Positions 1-19,278 of a DNA stretch of 64,000 bases are shown piece by piece (within the stretch, counting starts at the first letter, position 1; each line of letters begins with the position of its first letter). The DNA is from Bacteroides sp. GTDB lineage: Bacteria; Bacteroidota; Bacteroidia; Bacteroidales; Bacteroidaceae. The notes under the pieces are model-generated. The model had not been told where the DNA came from and did no database searches. It was given only the letters and a program-made list of their open reading frames with translations. The DNA is taken from positions 14,235 through 78,234 of the forward strand of contig JAXFUC010000011.1 in NCBI GenBank assembly GCA_034176395.1, in the 5' to 3' direction. A program made the translations under genes and the position numbers.

Positions 1-720
1 CTGCAACGGTAAACGGGGATGCGCCAATCGAATGAGATCAGTTTTCTGAGGAAGCAAACGAAAGACACAAGAGAGTTCAAGTGGAAGGCTCCCTAAAGGT
101 AAAGCCATAGCTAAATTAGAGAAGCGATTTTCTCCTCCTTCGCTCTCATGATAACGCTGCAAGGTAAAGGTGACACCGTCAGCAAAAGGATGAATGCGTA
201 GCAAACTCGAAAGTTCTCCTTTCAATCCGCGCAGAAACGAGAATTGGTAACTAAACCAATCATCGCCATTTAGCTGCTCGGTAATCTCAATGATAGCTCC
301 TCCCCGAGGCGAGTAACAAGTAATTGGATAGGCAAACCCGAGAGGCTGCACATTGGAAGATAGGAAAGCTGCCTGTTGCGTATCCTTTACAGCCATTCGC
401 TCGTTATAGAAGGGCTGCTGAAAGTACAGAGTAGTACTGTCGTGAACAACAATCCGCACCACACCTATGCTTTTAACAGGACGATTGAGCAGATCAAATC
501 CACGATTGATCTGAGCACGAATTTCAACTTCTCGATTAAAATAGCGCGAAGGAATTTCCAGAAACACACGTGCCTCTTTTTGGTATACAGGGAAAAGCCC
601 GTCTGTCGCAATGGCACCGGAGCAAAATTCTTCGAATGAGACGGTCTTCTGCTGCGCTTGCATGACATATGTAAAATAGAAGCAAAAGAAACATGCCGTT
701 ATCAGAAATTTCTTTAACAT
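1..720 (-). CDS. Partial secreted protein, probable second Zn-dependent metalloprotease paralog (DUF5117/DUF5118-like N-terminal region); runs off window edge
   Basis: Not in the ORF track. Hand translation from ATG at 720 gives 240 open codons to position 1: MLKKFLITACFFCFYFTYVMQAQQKTVSFEEF...GLFPVYQKEARVFLEIPSRYFNREV... It has a signal-peptide-like start, and GLFPVYQ..VFLEIP parallels GLFTAYQ..IYWEIP of the neighbouring protease. Starts 26 bp after that gene's stop. Confidence 0.75.
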   Translation of the reverse strand, partial: MLKKFLITACFFCFYFTYVMQAQQKTVSFEEFCSGAIATDGLFPVYQKEARVFLEIPSRYFNREVEIRAQINRGFDLLNRPVKSIGVVRIVVHDSTTLYFQQPFYNERMAVKDTQQAAFLSSNVQPLGFAYPITCYSPRGGAIIEITEQLNGDDWFSYQFSFLRGLKGELSSLLRIHPFADGVTFTLQRYHESEGGENRFSNLAMALPLGSLPLELSCVFRLLPQKTDLIRLAHPRLPLQ

Positions 721-746: not shown

Positions 747-3074
747 CTATAATTGAATGCGATTGGCTATTATCCGGGCAGAAGAACGTTCAATAGGATC
801 GGATGCTTGGAAACTTTGCTGCCAAGCAGCAGTCTTGATTTCTCGCAAGGTTCCGAAAACTTGGATCAACAATTCAGAAGAATGTATTCGATTCTCCGCA
901 TCCAAAAGTTGCATCAAACGATCAACATAACTAATCTGCATCTGCCGTTTGAGAAGGGGGGTAATATCTCCCCTCTCCCATTCCTCGAATAACCCCTTTT
1001 GGAGACCTTTTAATACCTCTCCAGTAGTCAAATAATAGCCTTTCTGATCTACACGAAGAATCGCACGTATTAACCCCTCTATAAGCTCTTTTCGGCAACG
1101 ATCATACTCTTGTTGTACATCTATCTCAAGTCTATTAGTAAGCTCCTTATCAAAAAGTTCTCCTGGAGGATTCAGCACATAGGAACGGATAAAATCTAAT
1201 ACTCTATGAGAATACTCCCTACTCTCATTGGATAACTCTTCTTCATTGGGAACACGCAGGGTTTTCCCTCCAAGATGTTCATACACGTGTTGAACCCATT
1301 GAAGATAATGCTGCAAGACTGATTGATAGCGTCCTTGCCACACTCGTAAAGAGATCCTATCAAGAGGGCTCCACTCGTCTATTCGCCTGCAAATGCTCTT
1401 GAGGTTTTCAATGCCTTGCGAATTCGCTTCCACATGGTCATTACTCAAATCTTCTGCTTGCGCATACACATTTCCACCACCAGCGAAGGCCAATAATTGA
1501 TTTCTCTGCTGTTCTTGCTCCCACAATCGTCGAGCTTTATTTCTTTCCTCCATAGTTTTTCCTGGAAAAAGACGATATGCCCATTCGATGGCATACCTAT
1601 CATAATGCCCAATCTGTATACGGCGATTTCTCAAAGAAACGGTATCTTGAGGGCGTAGCACATAATTGTAGCGTACGTAATCCATTATGGATGTGCCAAT
1701 ACTATTTTTAGTCAAAAACTCATTATCTCGCAATTGCTCAATGCTGTAATGACTACTGCCTAAAAAATTATGCTCCAATCCCAGCGTATGCCCTATTTCA
1801 TGAGATAGAACAAACTTAATCACTTCATGCTGAATCGAGTCGGGCAGCACCACATTCCAAGCTGCGGAATCACTTGCCGCACACTGTGCAAAGTACCATT
1901 TCTGCAACAGGTTCATCACACTACTAAATATCCCAACGTGACAAGCTATAATTTCTCCGGAATAAGGTTCGCACGGCGTCGGCCCATAAGCATTATTTTG
2001 CCCAGAAATTTTCCAAGAGATGAAAGGGAAAGACGTATCATGAATCTGAAAACTATCTCCATTCTCCGCGATAGGAGCCAAACAAGCATCAATGGCATCT
2101 TGGAATCCAGCCTGTTCAAAAGCCGAACGCCAATCACGCACAGCTTCAATCATAGCCTGTGTAAACTGAGGTGGTGTATTGCGATCAATGTAGAATACGA
2201 TAGGATTGATCGGTTTCACAAGCTCTCCACGTTCATATCGGGCCTTATCTTCAGGAGATATTTCAAGTCTCCAACGTTTTATGATTCCGACTTGACGAGG
2301 AGATTCATTCTGAGAATAATATGTTTTGGGAATGGAAAAATAGCTTCCAGATGTTGCCAGAATATGCTCCAACGCAGATGACGGTAGCAATCTTACGCAA
2401 ATACCAGTACGCCACAAACCTACATAGGACGGGGGTGTAGGTTTACCCGGAAGTCCGAAGGAGGAACTTCGATAGCAACGATCAATGTTGAACAAAATAC
2501 GATCCGGATAAGACTTCCAGGAGTAAATCGAATCAAAATCTTGTAATCTACTCCCAATTTCCAAATCGAAAGAAGCCATATCTAATGTAAACAAGGAGTG
2601 ATTCTTTAGGAATGATCCCACTTCAACTAAGGATCTATCAGACTGGCGAGAGATTATTGGAAGATTAGCGTATAGCTTCTGCCTTTCACTCTGCTGTAGA
2701 ATGCGGGCATAACAATTCGAAGAATCTTCTACAACCTCCTCGTGAGGAATACTCATGACTTGTAGTTTGTCCCCTTCCTTTCTTAGTTTAAAGAATAAGG
2801 GGCCTATGATATCACCTGCATAGCCAAACTTTTTCTCCATGTTTCGCATTGGGCGAGCCGGTGTTTCTAGGAGAGTGGTTGTCACAACAAAGGAACGTTC
2901 CAACATCGAATCAGGTATCTCCCAATAAATCTGTTCACCGCTTTGATAAGCGGTGAACAGACCTGAGGCAAGACTCCTATATGTTTTCCCTGGGGGAAAA
3001 TCATCCATATTACGAGCACTGCCTACTAAGTGGAGAGAGAGCAACGTAAGTAAACTCAAGAGTATCCTCAACAT
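747..3074 (-). CDS. Zinc-dependent metalloprotease (metzincin-like, DUF5117/DUF4953 type)
   Basis: HEIGHTLGLEH zinc motif plus SIMDY Met-turn; signal peptide. ATG at 3074 preferred over TTG at 3080. Confidence 0.85.
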   Translation of the reverse strand: MLRILLSLLTLLSLHLVGSARNMDDFPPGKTYRSLASGLFTAYQSGEQIYWEIPDSMLERSFVVTTTLLETPARPMRNMEKKFGYAGDIIGPLFFKLRKEGDKLQVMSIPHEEVVEDSSNCYARILQQSERQKLYANLPIISRQSDRSLVEVGSFLKNHSLFTLDMASFDLEIGSRLQDFDSIYSWKSYPDRILFNIDRCYRSSSFGLPGKPTPPSYVGLWRTGICVRLLPSSALEHILATSGSYFSIPKTYYSQNESPRQVGIIKRWRLEISPEDKARYERGELVKPINPIVFYIDRNTPPQFTQAMIEAVRDWRSAFEQAGFQDAIDACLAPIAENGDSFQIHDTSFPFISWKISGQNNAYGPTPCEPYSGEIIACHVGIFSSVMNLLQKWYFAQCAASDSAAWNVVLPDSIQHEVIKFVLSHEIGHTLGLEHNFLGSSHYSIEQLRDNEFLTKNSIGTSIMDYVRYNYVLRPQDTVSLRNRRIQIGHYDRYAIEWAYRLFPGKTMEERNKARRLWEQEQQRNQLLAFAGGGNVYAQAEDLSNDHVEANSQGIENLKSICRRIDEWSPLDRISLRVWQGRYQSVLQHYLQWVQHVYEHLGGKTLRVPNEEELSNESREYSHRVLDFIRSYVLNPPGELFDKELTNRLEIDVQQEYDRCRKELIEGLIRAILRVDQKGYYLTTGEVLKGLQKGLFEEWERGDITPLLKRQMQISYVDRLMQLLDAENRIHSSELLIQVFGTLREIKTAAWQQSFQASDPIERSSARIIANRIQL

Positions 3075-3080
3075 AGCCAA

Positions 3081-4700
3081 CTATTCATAATTGAAGGTGA
3101 TATCTACAATCTTTGCAAACGGATTAGCGGCATCCTTATAAACACATATACTATTCTCAGCCTTACTCACGTCACCGGATGGGGTCATTTGTAGTTCAAC
3201 CACATAATTACCGTTTTGTCCATTTACTCCCAATCCCAAAGACATACCGTATTCCTCTAGGTTCTCGGGATCCTTGAACTTGAGACAGGAAATCACAGCC
3301 GTTTTATCTTCGTACTCATAAACTTTGGTGACTTTCTTACGGTCCAAATCTATCCGATACACCCCATTTCCAGAGCTCATAAACAACAAGTTGGATACGT
3401 AAGCGAAAGAGGCTGCAAAACGAGCACTTGATAGATCTGTCTCTGAAGGAAGACCTATTTGATATTGTGCAAAACAGGCTGCTTCTCCCCTTATTTCACT
3501 GAATTGAAAAACTGTAAGATTCTTACCTGCTACGTCTGATGCAATCGCATAGAGATAATTTCCATAACTTCCACTCACTATATCTTTAATGTCCAAATTA
3601 GGATCTACTTGATTGGGGTCAAAAACATTGGCTTGCGTTCCACTGACTTCAATCTCCCTTAAAATAGTATGCTTGTCGGACCACGGAGAATTGTACACAC
3701 GTATCGGTTGAGAGGGTACAGACATGAAATCAAATAACTGCAAGCCTATCTTTTTCAAGAATCTCCGTTTTCCTTTGTCAAAAAAGATAGCAGAAGAATA
3801 ACCAGAACCGTAGGCCGATATGGCAATAGGCTCTTCCGAATCCGATGTTCGTATGGAGAAAGGTACGGAGAAACCATCCATAGCCGCAAACCACGTTTTC
3901 TTAGAAGTAATGTAAAAATCTCCATGTCGAGCCATTTTATAATAGGAAACCGAACGATCCGCCGCATCAAATAAAACTTTATCCGAGGCATAACGAGTTT
4001 CCAACGTGCTAGGAGTAAACAGAGATGCTCCTTGATCTGTTGCAATCATCAATGCAGGATTTGCAGTAAATTTCCTAAAGCCAAACATCTGAGCAGCCTG
4101 TTTATTGCCATATTCTCGACGAGCATATATACTCAACGGCTTACCTTGCAGAGGAAAATCCTCCTTTCTTTCCGATTGAAAGAGATCTGGAAAAATATAA
4201 TAACCACTCGGCTTACCTTCCACAGCTCCCAACAATCCTTTACCGTCTTTCTCTTGCAAAACAAACCAGCAAGGATTGAAAGGTTTAACGATGCTAATTT
4301 TTCCTGTTTTATACCACTTAGTACCATTAATACGATCATGAACTACAAGCAATACGCCCACATCTGTATCCTGCAATGGTTCAATAATCACCCTACATTC
4401 TTTTCCGGTAGCAAAGCTTTCATAGTCATCCATATTTATCGAGCCAACTTCTTTTCCCGATTTTAGGATTCTCCATTGGTACTCTAAATTGGCTTCTTTC
4501 TGCTCCAACGTTTGAGATATGACGGGAGTAACCACGACTTCCACAGCCTCTTCCTTAGGCATACGCACCTTCATCTCCGGTAAATCGACCTCCACTGTAT
4601 TGATGACTTGGTAATTGTAGTTCCCTTTATCATCGTAACATGCTTGGTGTAGCAAGCTTGTCATCATGAGACAAGCCATGCTTTTCAAAAATGTCCTCAT
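3081..4700 (-). CDS. PKD-like family surface lipoprotein
   Basis: Lipobox ...LHQA-C followed by YDDKGNYNY, typical of PKD-like lipoproteins in SusCD loci; start moved to MRTFLK (4700). Confidence 0.7.
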   Translation of the reverse strand: MRTFLKSMACLMMTSLLHQACYDDKGNYNYQVINTVEVDLPEMKVRMPKEEAVEVVVTPVISQTLEQKEANLEYQWRILKSGKEVGSINMDDYESFATGKECRVIIEPLQDTDVGVLLVVHDRINGTKWYKTGKISIVKPFNPCWFVLQEKDGKGLLGAVEGKPSGYYIFPDLFQSERKEDFPLQGKPLSIYARREYGNKQAAQMFGFRKFTANPALMIATDQGASLFTPSTLETRYASDKVLFDAADRSVSYYKMARHGDFYITSKKTWFAAMDGFSVPFSIRTSDSEEPIAISAYGSGYSSAIFFDKGKRRFLKKIGLQLFDFMSVPSQPIRVYNSPWSDKHTILREIEVSGTQANVFDPNQVDPNLDIKDIVSGSYGNYLYAIASDVAGKNLTVFQFSEIRGEAACFAQYQIGLPSETDLSSARFAASFAYVSNLLFMSSGNGVYRIDLDRKKVTKVYEYEDKTAVISCLKFKDPENLEEYGMSLGLGVNGQNGNYVVELQMTPSGDVSKAENSICVYKDAANPFAKIVDITFNYE

Positions 4701-4720
4701 ATGCAAAAAATACATGTGTT

Positions 4721-5395
4721 TTAGAATTGAATTTCATTCCCCTTATCATCAACGATCGGAGGGTTTCCACTTTCCTTATACTTTGTGTACGCTGCTACTA
4801 CCGTATCACAATCATCTGCTGTCATTTCTTTATAAGTACGTCCCATAACATCCATCATGAAGATATACTTGGCATCGCTGTAATCTCCCCAAGGCCATTC
4901 TTCCCAATCGGAAGGACGCAAATTCCAACTTACATGCACCACTAAGCGATGTTTTTCTATCAAGCCTTTGGCAAATTTATGGTTGGGATTCAACAAATCG
5001 AACTCAAGGAAACAACCATAAACCTTCTTATCTGCCTTCAGTTCCGGACGAATAATTTTATAGGGGAACTTCTGTACTACATCTGTCAAGTTGGTATAGG
5101 TGTACGCTTTCTCAAGGGAAATTTCCACCGGATTATCGTAATCTGTATTTTCAACAGTTTTGACACAGAAGGTTTTTGCCTCAGACAAATGTGTTCCTTG
5201 AATACGCACTTGAAAGCTATCAACCAAGAAAGGAGTTTTCTTCACGTAATCACTATCGACAAATTCAATAGCAGTGCGATAGGAATAAAAGTTGATGCGA
5301 GCCTCCTGATCATAAAGCTCTATCTCCTGTTCCTTACAACTCTGATAAAGCCCCCCCATCAACAAAACACCCAATATGTATATTAACTTCTTCAT
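4721..5395 (-). CDS. DUF4843-like lipoprotein
   Basis: Lipoprotein signal (YQS-C-KEQEI); C-terminal WGDYSDAKYIFM motif; sits directly after SusD. Confidence 0.7.
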   Translation of the reverse strand: MKKLIYILGVLLMGGLYQSCKEQEIELYDQEARINFYSYRTAIEFVDSDYVKKTPFLVDSFQVRIQGTHLSEAKTFCVKTVENTDYDNPVEISLEKAYTYTNLTDVVQKFPYKIIRPELKADKKVYGCFLEFDLLNPNHKFAKGLIEKHRLVVHVSWNLRPSDWEEWPWGDYSDAKYIFMMDVMGRTYKEMTADDCDTVVAAYTKYKESGNPPIVDDKGNEIQF

Positions 5396-5407
5396 AATCG
5401 AACTGTA

Positions 5408-6913
5408 TTAAAGGTTATTCCCGAAGATCTTCTCATTGTCGGGAATCGAAATCTGATACTCTTTGTCGGTCATTTCCTTCACACCACAACCGTAATAATA
5501 AGAGTAGTTGTGTGCCTTCAAATAATAGAATAATTGACCTTCAGCAAAGTATTCTTTTCTCACTTCTTTCATAATCTCATTTATACGCTTTGTTTGAGAA
5601 GGTGCTTCTTTGGACGATTGGTCTACATCGTCGTATTTTTCAGTTGAGATTGCATCTCCGTATGAAATACCTCTGGCAAAACGAACCGCATTGAGCGCCT
5701 CAACACTGGCTGTAGGATCTTTCTCACACTCTGCTACGATATAGTACATTTCCGGTAAACGGATAAGAGGGATTGTATTAAGTCCCGTTTCTGAAGAAAG
5801 TGGTTTCTGATTGTATTTGCGGCAGAAGAAATAAATATTGCTTCCTCTGCTTTGTTCAAACATCTCCGGATTCTTTCTCCAATCGGTACTTCCCAATCCA
5901 TCACGTTCGTAGAATTGGGTAAATCGCTCATTAGAAACCACAAAGCCTCTTTGGATATTCGTTTCCTCCATCTTCATGTTATTCTTGTCGAGCAAATCCC
6001 ACAGCTGATCGACAGACAAACCAAAAATTTGCTCCCCATAACGAATCGAGTTGTAATCGGCCAGGCTTTGAGCTGTGTACAACGTGAAGTTCTTATTGTC
6101 AATCACTTCTCTTGCATAAGTCACCGCTTTGGATTTACTCTGCTCATCGCCTTTATAACAATACACACGAGCTAACATAGCCTTCACAGCAATGAGATTC
6201 ATACGATATTCTCTGCTCGCTAAGAACGGATCCATCTCCGCATATTCTTCTCCGGAGTGATTGATAAAAAAGACCTGAGAATCGGATTTTGCCAATAGAG
6301 CCTCGGCTTCAAGAAGATCTTTCAAAATAAGAGACACCACTTCCTCTGCACTCAATATAGGTGTAGGAGTTTTGTCGAAGTTCGTCCGATAAGCAATCGC
6401 TTTCTCTTTAGGATTCTTTTGATATATGGGACCAAACAGTCTCAACAGGTCAAAATGTAGGAATGCTCTCAATCCCAAAGCTTCTCCCCTGAACAGCTCA
6501 TAATAACCTTTGGTTCGCAAGACATCTCGTCTTTTCTCGGTCTGTTCCAACAAGCTATTAATGTTTACAATAATGTTGTAGAGGTTATTATATATGGTAT
6601 TCTTCTTATCCTTCATCTTATTCTCATAATCAAATAAGATCTTTTGATTATGAAGTGTGGGATCATCCTCTACGCCGGGATAATTAGAATACAAACCGGC
6701 TAAACCGTCCACATAACCATAAGTCAGTTCTCCGGCATAGAGCCCAACTGTTCCCATCTTCAGATAGATTCCTGTCAACGCATCTTTGAAGCCGGCTTGC
6801 GATTCAAATAATTTATCTTTCGGGATAGAAGTTTTGGGATCTACGTTCAGCCAGTCATTACATGAAGAGAGCCCCAACAAAATAACTAATGCATATATAC
6901 ATATATTCTTCAT
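5408..6913 (-). CDS. RagB/SusD family lipoprotein
   Basis: SS-C-NDWLNVDP lipobox; GEALGLRAFLHFDLLRLFGP, IPLIRLPEMYYIVAE and EVRKEYFAEGQ SusD motifs. Confidence 0.92.
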   Translation of the reverse strand: MKNICIYALVILLGLSSCNDWLNVDPKTSIPKDKLFESQAGFKDALTGIYLKMGTVGLYAGELTYGYVDGLAGLYSNYPGVEDDPTLHNQKILFDYENKMKDKKNTIYNNLYNIIVNINSLLEQTEKRRDVLRTKGYYELFRGEALGLRAFLHFDLLRLFGPIYQKNPKEKAIAYRTNFDKTPTPILSAEEVVSLILKDLLEAEALLAKSDSQVFFINHSGEEYAEMDPFLASREYRMNLIAVKAMLARVYCYKGDEQSKSKAVTYAREVIDNKNFTLYTAQSLADYNSIRYGEQIFGLSVDQLWDLLDKNNMKMEETNIQRGFVVSNERFTQFYERDGLGSTDWRKNPEMFEQSRGSNIYFFCRKYNQKPLSSETGLNTIPLIRLPEMYYIVAECEKDPTASVEALNAVRFARGISYGDAISTEKYDDVDQSSKEAPSQTKRINEIMKEVRKEYFAEGQLFYYLKAHNYSYYYGCGVKEMTDKEYQISIPDNEKIFGNNL

Positions 6914-6926
6914 AGCATCTATTTAT

Positions 6927-9900
6927 TTAGAATCCTACATTCAAAGAGAAAGTAAATTGTCGAGCATAGGGATATGTCAATCCCCTTTCACGTTTAACGG
7001 TAGAGAGATAAAAGAAATCTTCCATATTAAACGCTACTTTGGCAGAACTCAAGCCCCAACGCTCGATAAGTTTACAGTTCTTTCGGTCCATGCGATAGTA
7101 AAGAGAACAAGAGCTACCTTGTAGGACATTCTCATCCATGATAAACCTCGAAGTAGCTTTCGTATTAGAGCCTGCATGATCCAGGCTCAGGAAACGAGAG
7201 TGGTCTCCGGGCTGCTTCCAGCGCAATTCCGTTACTCGACGATCTGCGTTTTGTTTCAAATCTGCATTCTCAACCTTATCCAATAACGTTTGATTATACA
7301 CCTGTCCACCAAATCGATACCTCACACTTATATCTGCTCCCCATCCCATGTAGGTGAATGAAGAGTTGATATATCCTTGCCAACGAGGCTCAGTATTGCC
7401 GATAGGCACCACGTCTGTGGGATCCCACTTGAGATGACTTGTCATTTCACCGTTCCGTTTGAGGAGTATTTCTTCGCCCGATGCAGGATCGATACCCAAG
7501 GAGCGGACCACCCAAATACGTGACAATGAATGACCTTCCTCATAGCGTGGCAGGGGAGTATTAGTTAAATTCCCCGCATTCAACTCATTAATGTGACGCA
7601 TCGCTTCAGAAATCTTCACCAACTTATCGCGGTTATGAGAACCGTTCAAACTAATAGTCCAATAAGATTGTTTACTTAGGTTACGATAAGGTATGGCCGA
7701 AAGAGTGACTTCCCAACCTCGGTTCTCTATTTCCCCTAAATTCTCCGGATATTGAGAGAACCCTATTGATGGAGCCAAGCTAACTTGAGTAACCATATTG
7801 TTAGTTACCTTACGGTAGCGCTCTATGCGAGCCGAAAGTCGTTGGTCAAATAAGCCTAATTCAAGGGCTAAATTCAGATTACGAGTAGATTGCCATCTCA
7901 AGTTTTCGTTGTGCATGCCTAGCAATTCTGCCCCCGTTGCATCCGAACCGTAATAGGGACGAAGCAAATTAGCATACGTATAATAGCTATGTGCTTGATA
8001 AGGATTGAAACCTTGAGAACCTACCGTACCAATCGTGCCTCTCAATACCAAGTCGGAAAGGAAAGAGACATTCTTGAAAACCTTTTCTTTCTTCAAATCC
8101 CAACGAAGCCCTGCCGACCAAAATGGAGCCCACCGATTGTTACGACCAAACACCGAAGAACCATCCAAACGAACATTAAAGTCTACCGAATACTTGTACT
8201 TGTAGGAGTATCCTCCAGCCAACACCCAGCCAACAGAGCGGCTTGTTTGTTCAAGCCCCGTGACTTTCTCACTGTATCTCTTTCCAAACAGAAGGTTATC
8301 CATATTGTCGTTAGGAAAGCCTATTACATAAGTCCCATATGTTTCACTCATGTCGCTCATGAGATTCATGCGAGCATTGGCCGTTAAATAATGATCGTGC
8401 AATTGCTTGTTCCAACTTGCGGTGAAGTCAACAGCCCATTTCACCGATTCGCTTTGACTACGGCGATAGTCTCCTTTCTTCTCCGGATTCACCTCTTTGT
8501 CAAATGCGGTGTGCTGTGCCGAACGGAAGATATCTCTATGCCCTACGCTCTTGGACAAAGAAAATGCTCCTTCCAAACGCAGGTCCTTGGTGGCATGATA
8601 CTCCACCTTGAACAGCTCACGCACAGTGAAGTTCTTGCCTTGATCCTTGCTTTTAAAGGTTGTATTGTACATGGGATTGGCATAACTTGTATAGGTCGTG
8701 CTTCCATGCAAAGCTCTAAAGTCATCTAATCTCTTATTGATTTCCCCATTCTCCCCATAAGGTCTTAGATAGGGATTCAGAGTGGTGTACTCACTGAATT
8801 GTCCCCACGGAGATTCGTCGGCCACCGAATTTTCGATGGTGATACTATTCTTCAGCAATAGGTTTTTTAGGCGGTACTGGAAGTCGAGCACGCCGGTTAG
8901 CACGTCGCGCTTACTTTGTTTCATCACACCGGGCGAAGAGTTATAGCCCACGTACATGCGGTAGCGAAGGGCTTCATCGCCACCTTCGAGGGTAAGTGTG
9001 TGGCGTTGTTGCAAGGCGGTTCGCAGCGGCTTCGACAACCAATACGTGTCGACGCCCGAGAGCACTTCTCGCAATTTGGATTCGTACAGCTCGGCCTTCT
9101 CGATGGTTTCGCCACCATAGGTATAAAGGCCCGAGAGTCGCTCGGCTTCTATCTTCTCTTTAGCATTCATCAGGTTGTAACCGGTCAGGTCGGGGGTTTC
9201 CACTCGCAACTCACCGCTGTATGTGGCCCAGAGTCGGCCGGGCTTGGGAGTTTTGCTTTCGATAACGATGACTCCGTTGGCTGCCCGTGATCCGTAGATG
9301 GCGGTTGCGGCGGCATCCTTCAACACTACGATGGACGATACGCGATCGGGGTCGAGGTCGGCCAATGTCTGCACACTGATCTCAAAGCCGTCCATGATGA
9401 GCAGGGGCTGATTGGCATAGGTTTCGTATTCGCCTTGCAGGCTCAGCAGGTCATCGCCTCCGCCTCCCAAGTCGAGATTGGCACCGCCTCGCATACGCAA
9501 ATCGGGGCGACTGTTGGGGTTGGAACCCATATTGATGTTGTCCACCAGGTTCAATCCCGGAGCCACTGCGGCCAGTGCCTTGGCTACGTTGGTGGTGCTG
9601 TATTTCTTAAGGTCTTCGCCCTTCACAGTGACAGCCGAGCCGGTGAAGCCTTCCTTCTTACGGTTGAACATACCGGTCACCACCACTTCGTCGAGAACCT
9701 TTGCATCGGGCTTCATGGATACGGCCAAGTCGGATGCAGCTTGCAGCTCCTGAGCTTGCATTCCCACAAAGGAGATGAGAATGATGCTGCCTTGAGGCAC
9801 GTTGGTGAAGGTGAACTGGCCTTCGTTGTTGGTAATGGTTCGCAGGTCGGTATTACCCACTTGAACCGTTGCTCCGATGATGGGAAAGCCATCTTCTTCC

Positions 9901-10259
9901 GAAATGACCCGACCGTTGACCGTGGCAATGGCTTTCTTCTCTCCCTGGCGAGTGACGTTGACAAAGCGCCCGTCCACGTTGTACTTCAACGGATGTTTGC
10001 CTATGATCGCTTTCATAGCTTCGTCGATGGAGGCATTTTTCACTTTGCCCGTTGCTTTGTAGGCATTGATTTCATCGTAAATAAAGAGCACTTTGTAAGA
10101 GCTCACCTTCTCCAGCCGCTTGAAAATGGCCGGCAAACTCTCATTCGCAAACTCCAAATCGATGCGTTTCTCCTTTCCTTGCTGGGCTTGCAGGGGCGGC
10201 ACAGCCAGTAGGAAAAACAGTAGGAGGGCAAGGATGCCCTGCATTCGCTTTGTTCTCAT
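6927..10259 (-). CDS. SusC/RagA TonB-dependent transporter with N-terminal STN signalling domain
   Basis: Signal peptide, STN-like domain, carboxypeptidase-regulatory-like domain, LKDAAATAIYGSRAANGVIVI plug motif, C-terminal Phe. Confidence 0.95.
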   Translation of the reverse strand: MRTKRMQGILALLLFFLLAVPPLQAQQGKEKRIDLEFANESLPAIFKRLEKVSSYKVLFIYDEINAYKATGKVKNASIDEAMKAIIGKHPLKYNVDGRFVNVTRQGEKKAIATVNGRVISEEDGFPIIGATVQVGNTDLRTITNNEGQFTFTNVPQGSIILISFVGMQAQELQAASDLAVSMKPDAKVLDEVVVTGMFNRKKEGFTGSAVTVKGEDLKKYSTTNVAKALAAVAPGLNLVDNINMGSNPNSRPDLRMRGGANLDLGGGGDDLLSLQGEYETYANQPLLIMDGFEISVQTLADLDPDRVSSIVVLKDAAATAIYGSRAANGVIVIESKTPKPGRLWATYSGELRVETPDLTGYNLMNAKEKIEAERLSGLYTYGGETIEKAELYESKLREVLSGVDTYWLSKPLRTALQQRHTLTLEGGDEALRYRMYVGYNSSPGVMKQSKRDVLTGVLDFQYRLKNLLLKNSITIENSVADESPWGQFSEYTTLNPYLRPYGENGEINKRLDDFRALHGSTTYTSYANPMYNTTFKSKDQGKNFTVRELFKVEYHATKDLRLEGAFSLSKSVGHRDIFRSAQHTAFDKEVNPEKKGDYRRSQSESVKWAVDFTASWNKQLHDHYLTANARMNLMSDMSETYGTYVIGFPNDNMDNLLFGKRYSEKVTGLEQTSRSVGWVLAGGYSYKYKYSVDFNVRLDGSSVFGRNNRWAPFWSAGLRWDLKKEKVFKNVSFLSDLVLRGTIGTVGSQGFNPYQAHSYYTYANLLRPYYGSDATGAELLGMHNENLRWQSTRNLNLALELGLFDQRLSARIERYRKVTNNMVTQVSLAPSIGFSQYPENLGEIENRGWEVTLSAIPYRNLSKQSYWTISLNGSHNRDKLVKISEAMRHINELNAGNLTNTPLPRYEEGHSLSRIWVVRSLGIDPASGEEILLKRNGEMTSHLKWDPTDVVPIGNTEPRWQGYINSSFTYMGWGADISVRYRFGGQVYNQTLLDKVENADLKQNADRRVTELRWKQPGDHSRFLSLDHAGSNTKATSRFIMDENVLQGSSCSLYYRMDRKNCKLIERWGLSSAKVAFNMEDFFYLSTVKRERGLTYPYARQFTFSLNVGF

Positions 10260-10303
10260 AATAAGTAAGACAGGTTAATTTTTGTTTCATTTCTTTTATT
10301 TTA

Positions 10304-10332
10304 TACGATTTTAAGAGCCGATTCGGTTACCC
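10304..10332 (-). promoter_or_regulatory. Putative ECF-sigma promoter for susC (GGGTAACC-N17-CGTA)
   Basis: Minus strand reads GGGTAACC gaatcggctcttaaaat CGTATAA, about 45 bp upstream of the susC ATG; near-identical motif upstream of fecR. Confidence 0.65.
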
Positions 10333-10508
10333 ATCGCTTGCTTTTTTCACAAGAAAATCGAAAGAATTATCTACAATCCACCCGGCGATCGCGCGATAAA
10401 CAACAGAGAAACAGATTATAACACCGACAATCAAGCAATCTAAAAAACATGCGACCGACAAACGGAGCATCGGCCGACCAAACGACGAATGCAAACACTC
10501 GACTCGGT

Positions 10509-10596
10509 GAGTGCCCACACTTTGCGTCCCAAGTGCCTACACTTTGCGACCTAAGTACCCACACTTTGAAACCTAAGTGCCCACACTTTGAAACTT
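10509..10596 (+). repeat. Tandem array of four 22-bp units (core AAGTGCCYACACTTTG)
   Basis: Units start at 10509, 10531, 10553, 10575: gagtgcccacactttgcgtccc / aagtgcctacactttgcgacct / aagtacccacactttgaaacct / aagtgcccacactttgaaactt. Confidence 0.92.
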
Positions 10597-10686
10597 GGAT
10601 ACAGACACCCGCCATGCACCCGTCCTCGTGCCCGGACAAGAATTGTAAATGCTTGGTATAGACAGCACAGTTTCAATAGAAACGAT

Positions 10687-10694
10687 TATCTTTG
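10687..10694 (+). promoter_or_regulatory. Bacteroidota housekeeping promoter -7 element (TATCTTTG)
   Basis: Matches TAnnTTTG, 35 bp upstream of ATG 10729. Confidence 0.6.
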
Positions 10695-10728
10695 CCCATT
10701 CCAAACGATAAATACTCAGTTATCACGT

Positions 10729-11865
10729 ATGTCTATCACCATTCATAAGGTCGTAACCAAGGATGAGCTGAAGAAATTCATCCGCTTCAATTACGAGTTC
10801 TATAAGGACAATCCCTATTCCGTTCCCGATCTCTATCCCGATATGCTCTACACGCTCGACCGCAATAGGAACGCAGCGTTCGAATTCTGCGAGGCCGACT
10901 ACTTCTTAGCCTATCGCGACGGCAAGATTGTAGGCCGGGTGGCAGCCATCATCAACCATCGAGCCAACGAGAAATGGAACACCAAGCACGTTCGCTTCGG
11001 GTGGATAGATTTCGTGGACGACCCCGAAGTATCGACAGCCCTTTTGCAGGCAGTCGAGAATTGGGGCCGCGAACGTGGCATGACCCACATCAACGGCCCA
11101 CTGGGCTTTACCGATTTCGACGCCGAGGGTATGCTCATCGAGGGCTTCGACCAGCTCAGCACGCTGGCCACCATCTACAATCACCCTTACTATCCTCTGC
11201 ACATGGAGCGACTGGGCTTTGAGAAAGACGCCGACTGGGTGGAGTATCAGATTTACATTCCCCAGAGCATCCCCGACAAACATCGACGCATTGCCGAACT
11301 GGTGCAGCAGAAGTACGGTTTGCAGATAAAAAAATACCGCTCGAACAAGAAAATTGCACGTGAATACGGACAGGCCATCTTCGAGCTACTCAACGAGTCT
11401 TACGGCGACTTATACGGCTTCTCGCCCTTGTCGCCACGGCAGATCGAGCACTACATGCGCATGTTCTTGCCCATTGTGGATCTGCGCATGGTGACGCTCA
11501 TCACCGATTCCGAAGGGCTGTTGGTGGGTGTCGGCATTTCGATGCCCTCACTGTCCGAAGCTTTGCAAAAGGCCAAAGGCAAATTGTTTCCCTTGGGCTG
11601 GTTTTATCTCTTCAAAGCCCTCTTCATGAAGCGCAGGGCCAAGATGCTCGATTTGTTGCTGGTGGCCGTGAAACCCGAATATCAAAACAAAGGTGTCAAC
11701 GCCTTGCTGTTTGCCGACCTCATTCCGGTTTATCAGCAATTGGGCTTCACTTATGCCGAAAGCAACCCCGAGTTGGAGCACAATGGCAAGGTGCAAGCCC
11801 AGTGGGACTACTTTGAAACCCGCCAACACAAAAGACGACGAGCCTACATCAAACCCATCGGCTGA
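10729..11865 (+). CDS. GNAT-like N-acetyltransferase (YghO-like)
   Basis: [13 protein letters not shown]...RFGW.DF, GPLGFTD.D.EGML, YNHPYY motifs. The longer ORF-track start (10588) runs through the repeat and lies upstream of the promoter. Confidence 0.75.
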
Positions 11866-11926
11866 ATACCGATCGAAGACCTCTCGCCCGCTATCACCCT
11901 TCTCTCATCAATCGGACATCGAACAT

Positions 11927-13795
11927 ATGGAACACCTCAATACGCCTATCCAAGAGTCGGTTGCCTACACCGACGACAACATTCGCCACCTCAGCGACAT
12001 GGAGCACGTGCGTACACGCCCGGGCATGTACATCGGTCGGCTGGGAGATGGAGCGCATGTCGAGGACGGCATCTACGTCCTACTCAAGGAAGTGATGGAC
12101 AACAGTATCGACGAGTTCAAGATGAATGCCGGCAAACGCATTGAGATTGTCGTCGAAGACCAGCTGCGCGCCAGCGTTCGCGACTACGGTCGAGGCATTC
12201 CTCAAGGCAAGCTCATCGAGGCCGTAAGTGTGCTCAACACCGGAGGTAAGTACGACAGCAAAGCATTCAAAAAAAGCGTGGGCCTCAACGGCGTGGGTGT
12301 CAAGGCCGTCAACGCTTTGAGCATACGATTCGAAGTGCGCAGTTATCGCGACGGCCAGGTGCGTACGGCCATCTTCTCCAAAGGGATTCTACAAAGCGAT
12401 GAAACCCGCCCCACGAACGAGGAGAACGGAACGTTCATCTTCTTCCAGCCCGACGATACGCTCTTTACCGGCTATCGTTTCCGAGAGGAGTTCATCGAAA
12501 CCATGTTGAGAAACTATACCTATCTCAACACCGGCCTTACCATATTATATAACGGGCAACGAATCCTATCGCGCAACGGCCTTGCCGATTTGCTGAACGA
12601 CAACATGACTTCCAACGGGCTGTACCCAACGATACACCTCAAAGGCGAAGACATCGAGATCGCTTTCACCCACACCGGACAATATGGCGAAGAATACTAC
12701 TCCTTTGTCAACGGGCAACACACCACCCAAGGCGGCACGCACCAAAGTGCATTCAAAGAACACATAGCACGCACCATCAAAGAATTCTTCAACAAAAACC
12801 AGGATTATACCGACATTCGCAACGGGCTGGTGGCAGCCATTGCCATCAATGTGGAAGAGCCGATATTCGAGAGTCAAACCAAGACCAAACTGGGCTCTAC
12901 CAACATTGCGGCCGGAGGCATCAGCGTGAACAAACACGTGGGCGACTTTGTGAAGCAAGAGGTAGACAACTACCTGCATAAGCATGGCGACGTGGCCGAG
13001 GTCATGCTACAAAAGATTCAAGAATCCGAGAAAGAACGGAAGGCCATTGCCGGCGTCACCAAGTTGGCTCGCGAGCGTGCCAAGAAAGCCAATCTGCACA
13101 ATCGCAAGCTAAGAGATTGCCGCGTACACCTCAACGACCCCAAGAGCAAGGAGCTGGCCGAAGAGTCGTGTATCTTCATCACCGAGGGCGACTCGGCCAG
13201 CGGTTCCATCACCAAGAGCAGAGATGTCAACACTCAGGCCGTGTTCAGCCTGCGGGGAAAACCACTGAATACGTTTGGATTGACCAAAAAGGTGGTATAC
13301 GAGAACGAAGAGTTCAACCTGCTGCAAGCGGCACTCAACATCGAAGAAGGTTTGGACGGACTGCGCTACAACAAAGTGATTGTGGCCACCGATGCCGATG
13401 TGGACGGTATGCACATCCGCCTGCTACTCATCACTTTCTTCTTGCAATTCTTCCCCGACCTTATCAAAAAAGGCCATGTGCACATCCTGCAAACTCCTCT
13501 TTTCCGGGTGCGCAACAAGCGAAAGACCATCTACTGCTACACCGAGGACGAACGCATCAACGCCATAGCAGAGTTGGGGCCCAACCCGGAAATAACGCGT
13601 TTCAAGGGTCTGGGCGAAATCTCCGCCGACGAATTCGGGCACTTCATAGGCAAAGATATGCGTCTTGAACAGGTGACCCTTCGCAAAACCGATGCGGTGA
13701 AAGACCTCTTGGAATTCTATATGGGGAAGAACACCTCGGAAAGACAAAACTTTATCATCGACAACTTAGTAATCGAAGAAGATTTAGCCTCATGA
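11927..13795 (+). CDS. parE: DNA topoisomerase IV subunit B
   Basis: [16 protein letters not shown] ATPase [35 protein letters not shown] and DADVDG; start at MEHLNT. Confidence 0.93.
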
Positions 13796-14247
13796 CACGC
13801 CGCGCCATATTCCCCGGAACATTCGACCCATTCACCGTAGGCCATGCCTCTATCGTCAACAGGAGCCTTGGGTTTATGGACGAACTCATCATCGGAATAG
13901 GAATCAACGAAAACAAAAACACCTATTTCCCTATCGAGAAACGCGAAGAGATGATACGCCGACTCTATGCCCATGAGCCACGAGTGAAGGTGGTGAGCTA
14001 CGACAACCTTACGGTAGATCTGGCCAAACAATGGGAAGCCCGCTTTATCATACGTGGCATTCGCACGGTGAAAGACTTTGAGTACGAAGAGACCATCGCC
14101 GACATCAATCGCAAGCTCGAGGGCATCGAGACCATACTCCTCTTCACCGAGCCCGAGCTTACCTGCGTCAGCTCTAGCGTGGTGCGCGAGCTACTGAGCT
14201 TCGGCAAAGACATCAGCCGTTTTCTACCCGAAGGCATGACCATCTGA
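13792..14247 (+). CDS. coaD: Pantetheine-phosphate adenylyltransferase
   Basis: [31 protein letters not shown] motifs; overlaps the parE stop by 4 bp. Confidence 0.96.
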
Positions 14248-14259
14248 TCCTCCCGACGC

Positions 14260-14790
14260 ATGAAGTCATCCGCTCACAATCACCCAACCCACGACACGTT
14301 CGATCAAACGTTTCAACAGTGGTATGAGCCGTTGGTCTACTTTGCCCACTACTTTACCAAGGACCTTGAAGTGGCCAAAGATTTGGTGAGCGATGCCTTC
14401 GAATACCTATGGGTCAACAACGAACGTCTCGACCCCACCACCGTCAAAGCCTATCTCTACTCCATCGTCAGGGCGCGGTGTATCGACCATCTGCGAAAGA
14501 AAGACATCCATGAACGCTACATCGACTTTGCCACCGAGCTAAGCCAACACTTGGCCGAACGGCAAGTGGACAGTGACGAGCCTCGCATTGCAGCCATTCG
14601 CCGAGCGATGCAAAAACTCACCCCCTACAATGCCCACATTCTGGAAGAATGCTATTTGAACAATAAGAAATATAAGGAAGTGGCCCAGCAACTCAATGTC
14701 AGCGTGGCAGCCATCCACAAAAATATCGTCAAAGCACTGCGCATTCTACGGCAAGAATTAACCGAGCAGGGTAACCAAAAGGCTACTTAG
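14260..14790 (+). CDS. ECF-type RNA polymerase sigma-70 factor (Bacteroidota SusC-associated type)
   Basis: Region 2 (AKDLVSDAF..LW, YLYSIVRARCIDHLR) and region 4 HTH (YKEVAQQLNVSVAAIHKNI); precedes fecR. Confidence 0.9.
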   Translation: MKSSAHNHPTHDTFDQTFQQWYEPLVYFAHYFTKDLEVAKDLVSDAFEYLWVNNERLDPTTVKAYLYSIVRARCIDHLRKKDIHERYIDFATELSQHLAERQVDSDEPRIAAIRRAMQKLTPYNAHILEECYLNNKKYKEVAQQLNVSVAAIHKNIVKALRILRQELTEQGNQKAT

Positions 14791-14796
14791 TTCGTA
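14769..14796 (+). promoter_or_regulatory. Putative ECF-sigma promoter for fecR (GGGTAACC-N16-CGTA)
   Basis: GGGTAACC aaaaggctacttagtt CGTATTAA overlaps the sigma gene 3' end, about 35 bp upstream of ATG 14832. Confidence 0.65.
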
Positions 14797-14831
14797 TTAA
14801 CTTATATGTTCCCTTGAAAAGAAACTCGGTA

Positions 14832-15998
14832 ATGAACGAAGAAATACTCTCCATCAGCCCTTCGGAGGAAAGAGCCATCGACCTCATGCAGGCGACGTCG
14901 GACATCGACCTCGAACAGTCGGAGCAGCTGCCACCCGATGCCGACAGTCTGGAGGCCTGTCTCGACATTGCCGAGATTCAACTCTTCCTTCAGCAACAAC
15001 GGCACCCCTTGCCGCTGAACACAGCCGAGGAACTGAGAAAGTTCCACCAAAAACAACAGAAAGCACCTGCTCGCACCACCTTGTATCGTTGGCTCATACC
15101 GGCCTTGACCGCGGCAGCTTCGTTGCTACTCCTTTGGCTCGTCCGCATCGACAAGCCGCAACCCATGCAACAACCCACGCCCATCGCCGTATTCCGTGCC
15201 GACACATCGGCCGCCAAGCATCCGCTACTCACCACTTTTGAGCAAGACACCGAACAGGGAATCACCTGCCCCACCTCCACCGACGCAGGCACCTACCTAC
15301 ACGATTCCAAGCTCGACTATCGCAACCTACAAGCCACCACGACCCTCTACGAAGGGAAAAACCGCATCCACCGGCTGAGCATACCACGCGGCGAAACCTT
15401 CAGCGTCCTCTTGTCCGACGGCACCGAGGTTTATCTCAACACTGACAGCCGCCTCACCTACCCCGCAGTTTTCAAAGGCAATCGCCGCATAGTGAAACTC
15501 GAGGGCGAAGCCTACTTCAACGTAGCCAAGGATGCTACACGCCCATTCATCGTCGAAACCGGTAACCTACAAGTGGAGGTCTTGGGCACCGAATTCGATA
15601 TATGTAACTACGGCAACCTGCCGGCACGCATCACTCTCTTGACCGGACAGGTGGCTGTGAAGGATGCCGACAACGCCGAGCTTACCTATATGAAACCGGG
15701 CGAAAGCCTACAAATAGACCAAGACGGTACACGTACCCTGACACAAATAGACCCCGAAGCCAATATCTATTGGCGCGAAGGCTACTTCTACTTTGACAAT
15801 GTCACGCTGGCCGAAATGATGCAAGAAATCGGACGTTGGTACAATATCGACGTGGATATAGCCAACGAGCAGCTCACCGCCCTACGCCTACATTTCTTCG
15901 CCAACCGTAAACAAGGCATCGAGCAAGTTATTACCCAGCTCAACCGTATGGAAAGCATCCATGCACGGCTGGAGAATGGCAAGCTCCTCATCCATTGA
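14832..15998 (+). CDS. FecR-family anti-sigma factor
   Basis: Single TM segment; LSIPRGETFSVLLSDGTEVYLN..S.L.YP, LEGEAYFNV and VLGTEF FecR motifs; DUF4974-like C-terminus. ATG 14832 preferred over TTG 14814. Confidence 0.9.
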   Translation: MNEEILSISPSEERAIDLMQATSDIDLEQSEQLPPDADSLEACLDIAEIQLFLQQQRHPLPLNTAEELRKFHQKQQKAPARTTLYRWLIPALTAAASLLLLWLVRIDKPQPMQQPTPIAVFRADTSAAKHPLLTTFEQDTEQGITCPTSTDAGTYLHDSKLDYRNLQATTTLYEGKNRIHRLSIPRGETFSVLLSDGTEVYLNTDSRLTYPAVFKGNRRIVKLEGEAYFNVAKDATRPFIVETGNLQVEVLGTEFDICNYGNLPARITLLTGQVAVKDADNAELTYMKPGESLQIDQDGTRTLTQIDPEANIYWREGYFYFDNVTLAEMMQEIGRWYNIDVDIANEQLTALRLHFFANRKQGIEQVITQLNRMESIHARLENGKLLIH

Positions 15999-16164
15999 CC
16001 GCGTGCCGGGCTTCTGCACTTTCCATTCCTACCCTCAGCAAGCCCCAAGCACCGCTCCCCACAAATAGGTAGCGAGCATGGAAATTCGTACCTACTTCTC
16101 GCTATTTTCGCCCCCTCATCCACAGAAAAAAAACGACCCACTACTTCGTAGTAAAGGAAACATG

Positions 16165-16172
16165 TACTTTTG
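16165..16172 (+). promoter_or_regulatory. Housekeeping promoter -7 element (TACTTTTG)
   Basis: TAnnTTTG match 44 bp upstream of the TonB receptor ATG. Confidence 0.6.
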
Positions 16173-16215
16173 TATCGCATTTTTAACACACACATATATC
16201 CCTTTCTATTGAACT

Positions 16216-18765: not shown

Positions 18766-18792
18766 TCACCATTTTTATTCTGTATTGTTCGC

Positions 18793-18830
18793 AAAAGGCT
18801 CGGCAATCGCCACGATTGTCGGGCCTTTTT
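18793..18830 (+). terminator. Rho-independent terminator after TonB receptor
   Basis: AAAAGGCTCGGCAATCG-cca-CGATTGTCGGGCCTTTTT stem (G-U pairs) with T-run. Confidence 0.8.
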
Positions 18831-19216
18831 CTTTGAACATAAAACGCTTGTTCGCACCCCTCTCTTCTTACGGCCTCCCCGCTCGAACAAGCAAGCATTG
18901 CGAGCGACAACACCTCGCGTACAATGGTCGCACACCCTTGGGAAAATCCTGAAGTAAAGGTTCCGACAACATCCATTGTGCTTGATTCAAGAGCGTTCAA
19001 GGCATGAACCGTACAGTTCAACATTCGGGATATACAACCCAAGTCACGAACGTTAAGAATCGCAGTACGATCGGTATTCGAGGCTCGATGCCCAGAGAAA
19101 AACAAGCCCACTTGCAACGATTTGCCACACGGCGTTCCGGCAGTATCCCTCGACATCTATGGTTCGAGGAGCTTGACTGTGCTCGTCTGCACCCAATCGT
19201 TCGAGAGTCGGTAAAC

Positions 19217-19256
19217 AAAAAGCGATGCCCCGACTTGCTCGTCGAGACATCGCTTT
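19217..19256 (-). terminator. Probable terminator after thioredoxin gene
   Basis: AAAGCGATG..CGAC-ttgctc-GTCG..CATCGCTTT hairpin, followed by a T-run on the minus strand. Confidence 0.6.
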
Positions 19257-19278
19257 CCTATGGGGATATAAGGGGAGC

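Follow-up and report, generated by a model that had tools for sequence, protein, structure and literature searches.

The stretch of DNA analysed here (the window, 64,000 nt in full) comes from a metagenome-assembled genome (MAG) of a Bacteroides sp. and carries on its minus strand a susC gene (6927-10259, encoding 1110 amino acids) whose GC content at third codon positions (GC3) changes abruptly within the reading frame. By change-point analysis GC3 was 0.67 over codons 1-481 and 0.45 thereafter, with a log-likelihood ratio of 25.6 against a permutation maximum of 11.0 (n = 2000). The step ranked first among the 235 open reading frames (ORFs) of at least 600 amino acids in the genome (runner-up, 18.8), and in the other 21 SusC-like genes of the genome the GC3 of the first 480 codons and that of the rest never differed by more than 0.06. 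An initial annotation of the letters had placed a GC break inside susC at an ESPWGQFSEY motif on the basis of hand counts of 60-bp lines; all seven counts were exact on recount, the motif begins at residue 482, and GC3 along the gene was stepped, as had been proposed, and not smooth.

The genome (G000; 2.19 Mb in 154 contigs, 96% complete) has 50.7% GC and a mean GC3 of 0.595 (sd 0.075). On this scale the 5' half of susC ranks near the 85th percentile, and its 3' half, together with the operon that follows (0.38-0.45), near the 1st to 5th. The low-GC tract extends from about window position 8870 leftwards, past the window start, to C11:12787, a border given in contig coordinates that lies 1447 bases before the window start. 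The tract is about 10 kb long at about 40% GC and ends about 15 nt beyond a convergent nitroreductase gene, counted from its stop codon. The genome is filed in one genus with Bacteroides of 6 Mb (B. sp. KFT8 and the B. xylanisolvens group) in which the GC around this locus is about 38-39%, and would be a small-genome, high-GC lineage within that genus.

The product of susC was assigned to the SusC/RagA family by curated models (TIGR04056, 584.8 bits, cut-off 368; TIGR04057 signature, 51.8 bits, cut-off 46.2), and among solved structures its closest relatives are RagA (6sli) and a homologue of SusC (8aa4). Pfam placed a CarbopepD_reg_2 domain at residues 114-194 and a Plug domain at 206-330, both N-terminal to a large beta-barrel whose strand series starts at residue 343 in a structure model. 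The barrel was well predicted and the plug poorly so (predicted local distance difference test score below 50 for residues 186-333), and only the order of barrel strands was used from the model. Residues 482-537 form a long loop between strands 5 and 6, predicted from strand parity to be extracellular loop 3 (L3). An STN-type domain at the N terminus is indicated by a FecR_C-like Pfam match at 35-100, by homologues annotated with PF07660 (STN), and by a confident beta-alpha-beta fold at residues 33-104 of the model.

Five genes follow susC in the low-GC tract, all on the minus strand, with GC3 of 0.38-0.43. These are susD, encoding the lid lipoprotein (5408-6913; SusD-like_3 and SusD_RagB domains; GC3 0.43); genes for a DUF4843 lipoprotein (4721-5395) and a PKD-like lipoprotein (3081-4715; PF16407, PKD_2); a Met-zincin gene (747-3080; DUF5118/DUF5117/DUF4953); and a second zincin-like gene, whose N-terminal part (DUF5118/DUF5117) occupies window positions 1-720 and which in full spans C11:12918-14954. 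No carbohydrate-active enzymes were found among the annotated genes of the operon; the Met-zincins are present, in keeping with a locus for the uptake of protein or peptides.

Three housekeeping genes lie between susC and a plus-strand gene pair, recognised by Pfam and NCBIfam, for an ECF (extracytoplasmic function) sigma factor (14260-14790) and a FecR-type anti-sigma factor (14814-15998); the composition of the pair is that of the backbone (GC3 0.63-0.66). Bacteroides relatives have the genes in the order ECF sigma factor, FecR, susC, susD, DUF4843, PKD_2, zincin, zincin. The pair in the window is orthologous to the pairs that lie beside susC elsewhere, with 60-62% (sigma) and 43-45% (FecR) amino acid identity to susC-adjacent pairs in Bacteroides and 71% and 50% to the pair immediately upstream of susC in L034, a contig of a second species described below. 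From this homology the two proteins are presumed to be the regulatory partners of the SusC N-terminal domain. Between the two species that domain is 56% identical and FecR 50%, a similar rate of divergence that would fit co-adaptation within a retained module.

An intrinsic constraint, by which codon usage, expression level or the amino acid composition of a barrel makes the 3' part AT-rich, is one rival explanation of the step, and GC content at first codon positions too declines slightly past codon 460. Both halves are nevertheless read from a single mRNA, the other SusC genes of the genome have no step, and orthologues in other high-GC hosts are uniform in GC3 across the two parts (0.88/0.86 in Segatella baroniae, 0.70/0.71 in Prevotella). 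The uniformly high GC3 of these orthologues refutes an AT constraint on the barrel, and the broader form of the explanation is very improbable.

Replacement of the cassette between conspecific strains

The two halves of SusC were searched separately against 5.8 billion proteins. One protein, P0003, was 100% identical over residues 1-465 and 82% identical over 485-1110. The contig that encodes it, L028, is syntenic with that of the window and belongs to a conspecific strain. Its right flank aligned at about 99% nucleotide identity from window 8739 to 20245 and its left flank at 98.5% to the left of C11:12787, and between these two borders identity was 55-89%, over 10.3 kb in the window and 5.9 kb in L028. 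The replacement is thus two-ended. The L028 cassette has its own susD (65% amino acid identity), DUF4843 (50%) and PKD_2 (49%) genes and lacks the zincins. The window type is hereafter called allele A and the L028 type allele B. Strains with a common 5' half joined to different 3' halves, SusD and accessory genes, whose existence the initial annotation had anticipated, were therefore found.

Along susC the alignment of the two alleles falls into several segments, all on the minus strand. The 5' module, codons 1-462 (8871-10259; GC3 0.65-0.68), is conserved within the species, with 99.4% nucleotide identity to L028 and 98.6% to L035, a contig that also carries allele A. It encodes the signal peptide, the STN-like N-terminal extension, the DUF4480/CarboxypepD_reg domain and the plug, as identified by Pfam, and, by the model, the first four barrel strands and the beginning of the fifth. 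The intergenic region on the promoter side of susC (10260-10587) is kept with this module (94-100% nucleotide identity to L028), so that the retained part does include the promoter side, the STN-like domain and the plug, as had been suggested. Over codons 463-507 (8739-8870; GC3 0.53) strand 5 is completed and L3 begins with its conserved half (…SITIENSVADESPWGQFSEYTTLNPYLRPYGENGEI). These codons are identical in both alleles of this species, forming a 132-nt run with L028, and are already AT-richer; this segment is the likely crossover zone.

Overall, susC was 99-100% identical to its L028 counterpart up to codon 507, and the first difference fell at codon 508. Codons 508-541 (8637-8738), the hypervariable part of extracellular loop L3, have 37-57% nucleotide identity to allele B with a 9-bp indel, and this was the most variable stretch in all pairwise comparisons. 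A 107-nt patch covering strands 6-7 (codons 541-576, 8530-8636) is identical in alleles A and B, a sign of mosaic gene conversion. The remaining allelic part, codons 577-1110 (6927-8529; GC3 0.43-0.47), encodes strands 8-22 and their loops and has 64-93% nucleotide and 81% amino acid identity to allele B. A recombination border inside susC at the site first named is thereby confirmed; it had been put at the start of the barrel, and in the structure model it lies instead five strands into the barrel, in L3.

Allele A, with both junctions and the same gene order, was recovered from at least eight independent assemblies or runs, one of them a 142-kb scaffold. These recoveries leave almost no room for an assembly artefact in which a contig joins two organisms at a stretch common to both susC genes. 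The genome is a MAG in 154 contigs and the junction falls in a conserved motif, as such an error would require, but the same full-length protein recurs in these assemblies from different runs and the far end of the low-GC tract rejoins the same syntenic host flank.

All allele A loci (the window, L035 and L078-L084) share one susD and accessory set and L028 has its own; transporter and lipoprotein types are inherited together, in a sample that holds two allele B contigs, both full-length. The seven allele A haplotypes differ by about 1%, and the backbone by about 2%. Backbone identity was 98.0% between the window (A) and L028 (B) and 96.8% between the window (A) and L035 (A), and 236 backbone sites supported the window with L028 against L035, with 94 and 126 sites for the alternatives. 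The nearest backbone to that of the window (A) is thus that of L028 (B), which suggests that allele type and backbone do not go together.

A site-specific shufflon or phase-variation system, in which an invertase joins one expressed 5' end to alternative susC 3' ends, would likewise keep the 5' end constant and vary what follows it. By blastn neither the junction nor the 5' half had a second copy in the genome, the inverted repeats at the junction were short and of chance quality, no recombinase was present among the annotated neighbouring genes, and the alternative cassette occurs in other strains and is not stored in the same genome. Such a mechanism is accordingly a very remote prospect here. 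Conversion by a paralogue inside the genome was considered too and rejected, as blastn of both halves gave no close copy.

Two further observations concern the regions around the exchanged segment. A 22-bp tandem repeat of at least four units (consensus about AGTGCCCACACTTTGCGWCCYA) lies at 10488-10597, between susC and a divergent GNAT-like gene. Short tracts in the 3' end of the FecR gene and in a neighbouring TonB-dependent receptor gene (15600-16200, 17400-17550 and 18600-19200) have 74-89% nucleotide identity between strains that are otherwise 98-99% identical; recombination has probably acted there too, on other genes of the surface or envelope.

Borders and allele histories in two species

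The same arrangement was found in a second species. L034 (= L060), from a MAG labelled 'Bacteroides sp.', has flanks far from those of the window (nitroreductase 61% amino acid identity; sigma factor and FecR as given above). GC3 was 0.64-0.73 in its flanks and the susC 5' part and 0.28-0.33 right after codon ~508, and its downstream genes had GC3 of 0.35-0.39 to the end of the second zincin, where the nitroreductase gene follows. L077 is conspecific with L034 (nitroreductase 99% amino acid identity, flank 98.7% nucleotide identity). The two susC genes were 96-100% identical to codon ~518 and 63-93% identical beyond it, with the first difference at codon 519, and the left border lies at most about 55 nt from the nitroreductase stop codon. 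The L077 cassette has four genes and lacks the zincins that L034 carries. In both species the first differences come directly after the motif SITIENSVADESPWGxFSEYTxLNPYLRPYGENGEI, which was conserved in all lineages compared. The junction zone is thus reused in two species. Strong discordance of 5' over 3' identity was confined to the window/L028 and L034/L077 pairs among all pairs of about 35 orthologues.

For both halves of SusC the best matches were Bacteroides sp. KFT8 and its relatives, at 71-72% (N-part) and 75% (C-part). Sequences from high-GC hosts formed one clade at the same position in both trees (N-part, support 100%, stem 0.10; C-part, support 99%, stem 0.11). Within this clade the N-part tree grouped sequences by species (100%), whereas the C-part tree joined the window with L034 (97%), and the C-part of L028 was nearest to that of L077 (85% amino acid identity). 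The susD product of the window is 73% identical to the type A copy of this sister species. The deep histories of the two halves therefore agree, and incongruence is confined to the high-GC-host clade. Separate searches and trees for each half had been expected to part company; they did so within that clade, and at the deep level best hits and position were the same, which contradicts the fusion of a host part to a foreign part that had been proposed. Within species dN was 0.116 and dS saturated for the C-part, and dN was 0-0.001 and dS 0.02-0.10 for the N-part; between species the N-part had dN 0.11 and dS 1.5-1.7. Together the trees and the L077 match suggest that the two alleles are common to both species.

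No donor emerged from several searches. Among the 5.8 billion proteins no C-part match exceeded 82% identity, and with allele B SusD as query nothing above 71% was found in the large database outside the two species. A search of 61 genomes of relatives gave orthologues of 62-75% identity in four Bacteroides genomes, and the best match in a scan of named genomes (80%) was the record of L034 itself. The nitroreductase anchor was not seen beside the polysaccharide utilization locus (PUL) of low-GC Bacteroides within the ~1.6 kb visible downstream. Since no close donor was found, allele A is established and a diverged species has the same borders, a recent import into the window's lineage is unlikely; the commonness of allele A, its ~1% internal diversity and the shared layout likewise speak against the recent event of the initial annotation.

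Base composition of the cassette

Singleton single-nucleotide polymorphisms (SNPs) were counted in the seven allele A haplotypes, with the minority state taken as derived; the haplotypes are consensus sequences from metagenome assemblies and the counts are modest. In the cassette (GC3 0.40) the ratio of GC->AT to AT->GC changes was 52:49 over all sites and 31:30 at third positions; in the backbone (GC3 0.67) it was 131:51 and 56:18, and in the 5' half of susC by itself 14:4. After removal of clustered SNPs the ratios were 46:44 in the cassette and 116:42 in the backbone (Fisher p = 5e-4). The per-site bias is about 1.5 in cassette and backbone alike and corresponds to a mutational equilibrium GC3 of about 0.40. 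Rare SNPs are balanced in the cassette and biased towards AT in the backbone. The composition of the cassette therefore matches the mutational equilibrium of the species, with no amelioration under way, and some fixation bias keeps the backbone above that equilibrium without an effect on the cassette. Low GC is thus no evidence of foreignness at this locus, where the initial annotation had read it as one.

A recent horizontal import would carry the barrel-SusD-accessory segment of a low-GC donor into a resident susC, and low GC would then be the signature of that donor. The sharp GC3 step, a 10-kb tract of ~40% GC in a 50.7% GC genome, the concentration of this PUL family in low-GC Bacteroides (38-44% GC, with flat profiles), and the demonstration that cassettes are replaced in the window's species are all what it predicts. 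It has to be set against the agreement of the two halves in best matches and tree position, the 82% ceiling on C-part matches, the seven haplotypes of allele A with their ~1% diversity, a species whose flanking proteins are 50-71% identical and which has the same borders, and the failure to see the nitroreductase anchor beside the PUL in low-GC Bacteroides (~1.6 kb visible). Rare SNPs moreover lack the AT->GC excess of ongoing amelioration, and the cassette has no mobile-element genes. On this balance it is unlikely. The features of a classical genomic island are few: composition is atypical, but there were no mobility genes, no border repeats, no donor above 82% and no imbalance among SNPs (52:49).

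The bias acting on the backbone may be gene conversion or selection, and the composition of the cassette may have been kept from ancestral Bacteroides, may have relaxed, or may be the relic of a donor. One possibility, put forward tentatively and with more doubt than confidence, is that the AT-richness of the cassette is nothing foreign but the mutational equilibrium of the species itself (GC3 ~0.40), and that the backbone (~0.67) is raised by a fixation bias that fails in a long-lived, multi-allelic, recombination-poor tract. Biased gene conversion could be at work, or else weak selection of a kind effective only with recombination and in a large effective population, and the tract would have kept, or relaxed to, the low-GC composition that was probably ancestral in Bacteroides while the rest of the genome rose. 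If true, the intragenic GC step would be a population-genetic footprint of balanced polymorphism and a natural within-gene experiment on the drivers of bacterial GC content. A sharp low-GC tract is commonly read as recent horizontal transfer, and caution is advised; were the pattern general, some 'foreign islands' of moderately GC-rich bacteria may be regions that escape a GC-raising force.

The cassettes differ in their compositional distance from the backbone. The B-like cassette of the second species (L077:307-7505) has intermediate GC3, at ~0.59 in the susC 3' part, 0.53 in susD, 0.50 in DUF4843 and 0.51 in PKD_2, and the other three cassettes have GC3 of 0.35-0.46.

Interpretation and relation to known systems

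The explanation preferred here, with a probability of roughly 0.7, is that the GC step is the fixed border of an old, strain-variable, multi-allelic surface-gene cassette of the ragAB kind. Its 5' side would be a species-conserved module (promoter region, STN-like domain, DUF4480, plug, strands 1-5 and the conserved base of loop 3) that must fit the host's own TonB, sigma factor and anti-sigma factor. The 3' side would be a co-adapted surface set, made up of the remainder of the barrel and its outer loops, SusD as the lid, the two lipoproteins (DUF4843 and PKD-like) and, as an option, the pair of Met-zincins, and would exist in deeply diverged allelic forms, of which the window has A and L028 has B. 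Whole cassettes would pass between strains by homologous recombination anchored in the susC 5' half and in the flank just beyond the convergent nitroreductase gene, with occasional conversion between alleles leaving mosaic patches. The border would fall where nucleotide homology stops, just ahead of the first hypervariable surface loop, and module compatibility and the end of homology could together fix it in loop 3. Diversifying or frequency-dependent selection on the surface parts, exerted by phage, bacteriocins, host immunity or substrate range, may maintain the alleles.

Several points weigh against this explanation. Allele B is known from only two strains or contigs, the B-like form of the second species from one contig, and all of the strains are metagenome assemblies. 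Approximately unbiased (AU) tests disfavoured species-wise grouping of the C-parts without rejecting it (p = 0.14 and 0.06), and the DUF4843 and PKD_2 proteins of allele B and of the B-like form are not each other's closest relatives. An allelic cassette, moreover, gives by itself no reason for persistent AT-richness.

Some of these points would suit a single ancient import, which formed a chimeric gene before the two high-GC species diverged and was followed by vertical descent, with A and B arising later within each species. It would explain why both species have the same borders and why the C-parts from high-GC hosts all fall in one clade; the AU tests do not reject the species-wise grouping that it implies, and an equilibrium GC3 of ~0.40 would let a low-GC relic persist. 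The equal N- and C-part stems at one tree position, however, leave no separate origin of the halves visible, and the chimera needs a reason for a GC-raising force to spare this tract alone. Divergence between A and B within species (dN 0.116, dS saturated) is also as deep as that between species and lies beside a nearly identical 5' half, so that recombination or very old alleles would be required either way. This history is considered rather improbable.

The old multi-allelic cassette has a close counterpart in ragAB. Each locus holds, at a single chromosomal site, a SusC/SusD-family pair for the uptake (presumed for the present locus) of protein or peptides, and the types of the pair are deeply diverged and co-inherited. 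Across types the transporter gene starts with a near-identical stretch and the lipoprotein gene diverges throughout, and G+C is below that of the genome. The ragAB types, moreover, do not follow strain phylogeny and occur in two sister species, and both features are suggested for the present locus. Hall and colleagues, in work on rag alleles from 2005, are said to have found the G+C of the rag locus lower than that of the genome. The present locus differs from ragAB in that its conserved part extends over about 507-518 codons and includes the plug and five strands, and that of ragA covers the first 150 codons, ahead of the plug. Here the cassette holds four to six genes, including Met-zincins absent from one allele, signalling is provided for by an STN-like domain on SusC and a gene pair for an ECF sigma factor and its anti-sigma factor, and the host is a commensal-type Bacteroides MAG. 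In Porphyromonas gingivalis and P. gulae, ragAB occurs in four types, with the first 450 nt of ragA nearly identical in all and ragB divergent throughout (PMC11817032), and rag types are a mosaic unrelated to strain phylogeny (PMC5266723).

In Bacteroides ovatus and B. xylanisolvens, PULs are swapped between conserved core 'nodes' via homologous recombination (Pudlo et al. 2022, PMC8845570). As there, variable PUL content lies exactly between conserved flanks, without mobile-element genes, and homologous recombination in the flanks after chromosomal transfer is the proposed route. There the anchoring nodes consist of entire core genes that flank the PUL, and the PULs exchanged are often unrelated, whereas here one anchor lies inside susC and the cassettes are alleles of one PUL family. 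For that reason a swap of specificity, as proposed at the outset, is conjectural. Relative to ragAB and the nodes, the distinguishing features of this locus are a border deep in the barrel, a multi-gene cassette with optional proteases, a signalling-type transporter and the same border in two species.

Shufflons of Bacteroides fragilis and B. thetaiotaomicron that act on SusC/SusD genes join an expressed susC 5' end to alternative 3' parts with their partner genes. They are reversible, site-specific systems that operate inside one genome by way of inverted repeats and a tyrosine recombinase, and no such feature was found here. Neisserial transferrin-binding and porin genes and capsule or O-antigen loci likewise have mosaic allelic surface parts with conserved flanks that serve as recombination anchors. 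They belong to other families and taxa, and in the present case a GC3 step accompanies the border, which lies inside a TonB-dependent barrel of 22 strands.

SusCD uptake loci outside Porphyromonas can thus be two-part, with a species-fixed inner module for signalling and energy coupling and an exchangeable outer module of barrel loops, lid and surface lipoproteins or proteases, joined in a surface loop that is reused in two species. Such a layout bears on how gut Bacteroidales may diversify their surface with regulation kept intact, on the interpretation of strain-level variation in metagenomes and on the engineering of chimeric SusC transporters.

Other intragenic borders were met in the course of the comparisons. 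The protein P0123 (L032:8001-11252), with P0124 and P0125, is an opposite chimera, with 18-42% identity to the SusC of the window over residues 1-340, which take in the N-terminal domain, DUF4480 and the plug, and 76-81% over 341-1110; the C-parts of these three are identical or near-identical to ordinary Bacteroides copies, as in a swap of the N-terminal module near the plug/barrel border. The susC orthologue of Prevotella conceptionensis (L073) has a reverse GC3 step, from 0.56 (codons 113-462) to 0.75 (577-1110) in window-aligned codons, and may mark another border in this SusC family. On contigs C97 (38570-41192, 44877-46821 and 62382-64911) and C141 (13588-15622) of the window's genome, long ORFs with opposite GC3 change-points, low at the 5' side (e.g. 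0.47 to 0.71), are candidates for further compositional borders; their coordinates are given as recorded, unchecked against the plus strand.

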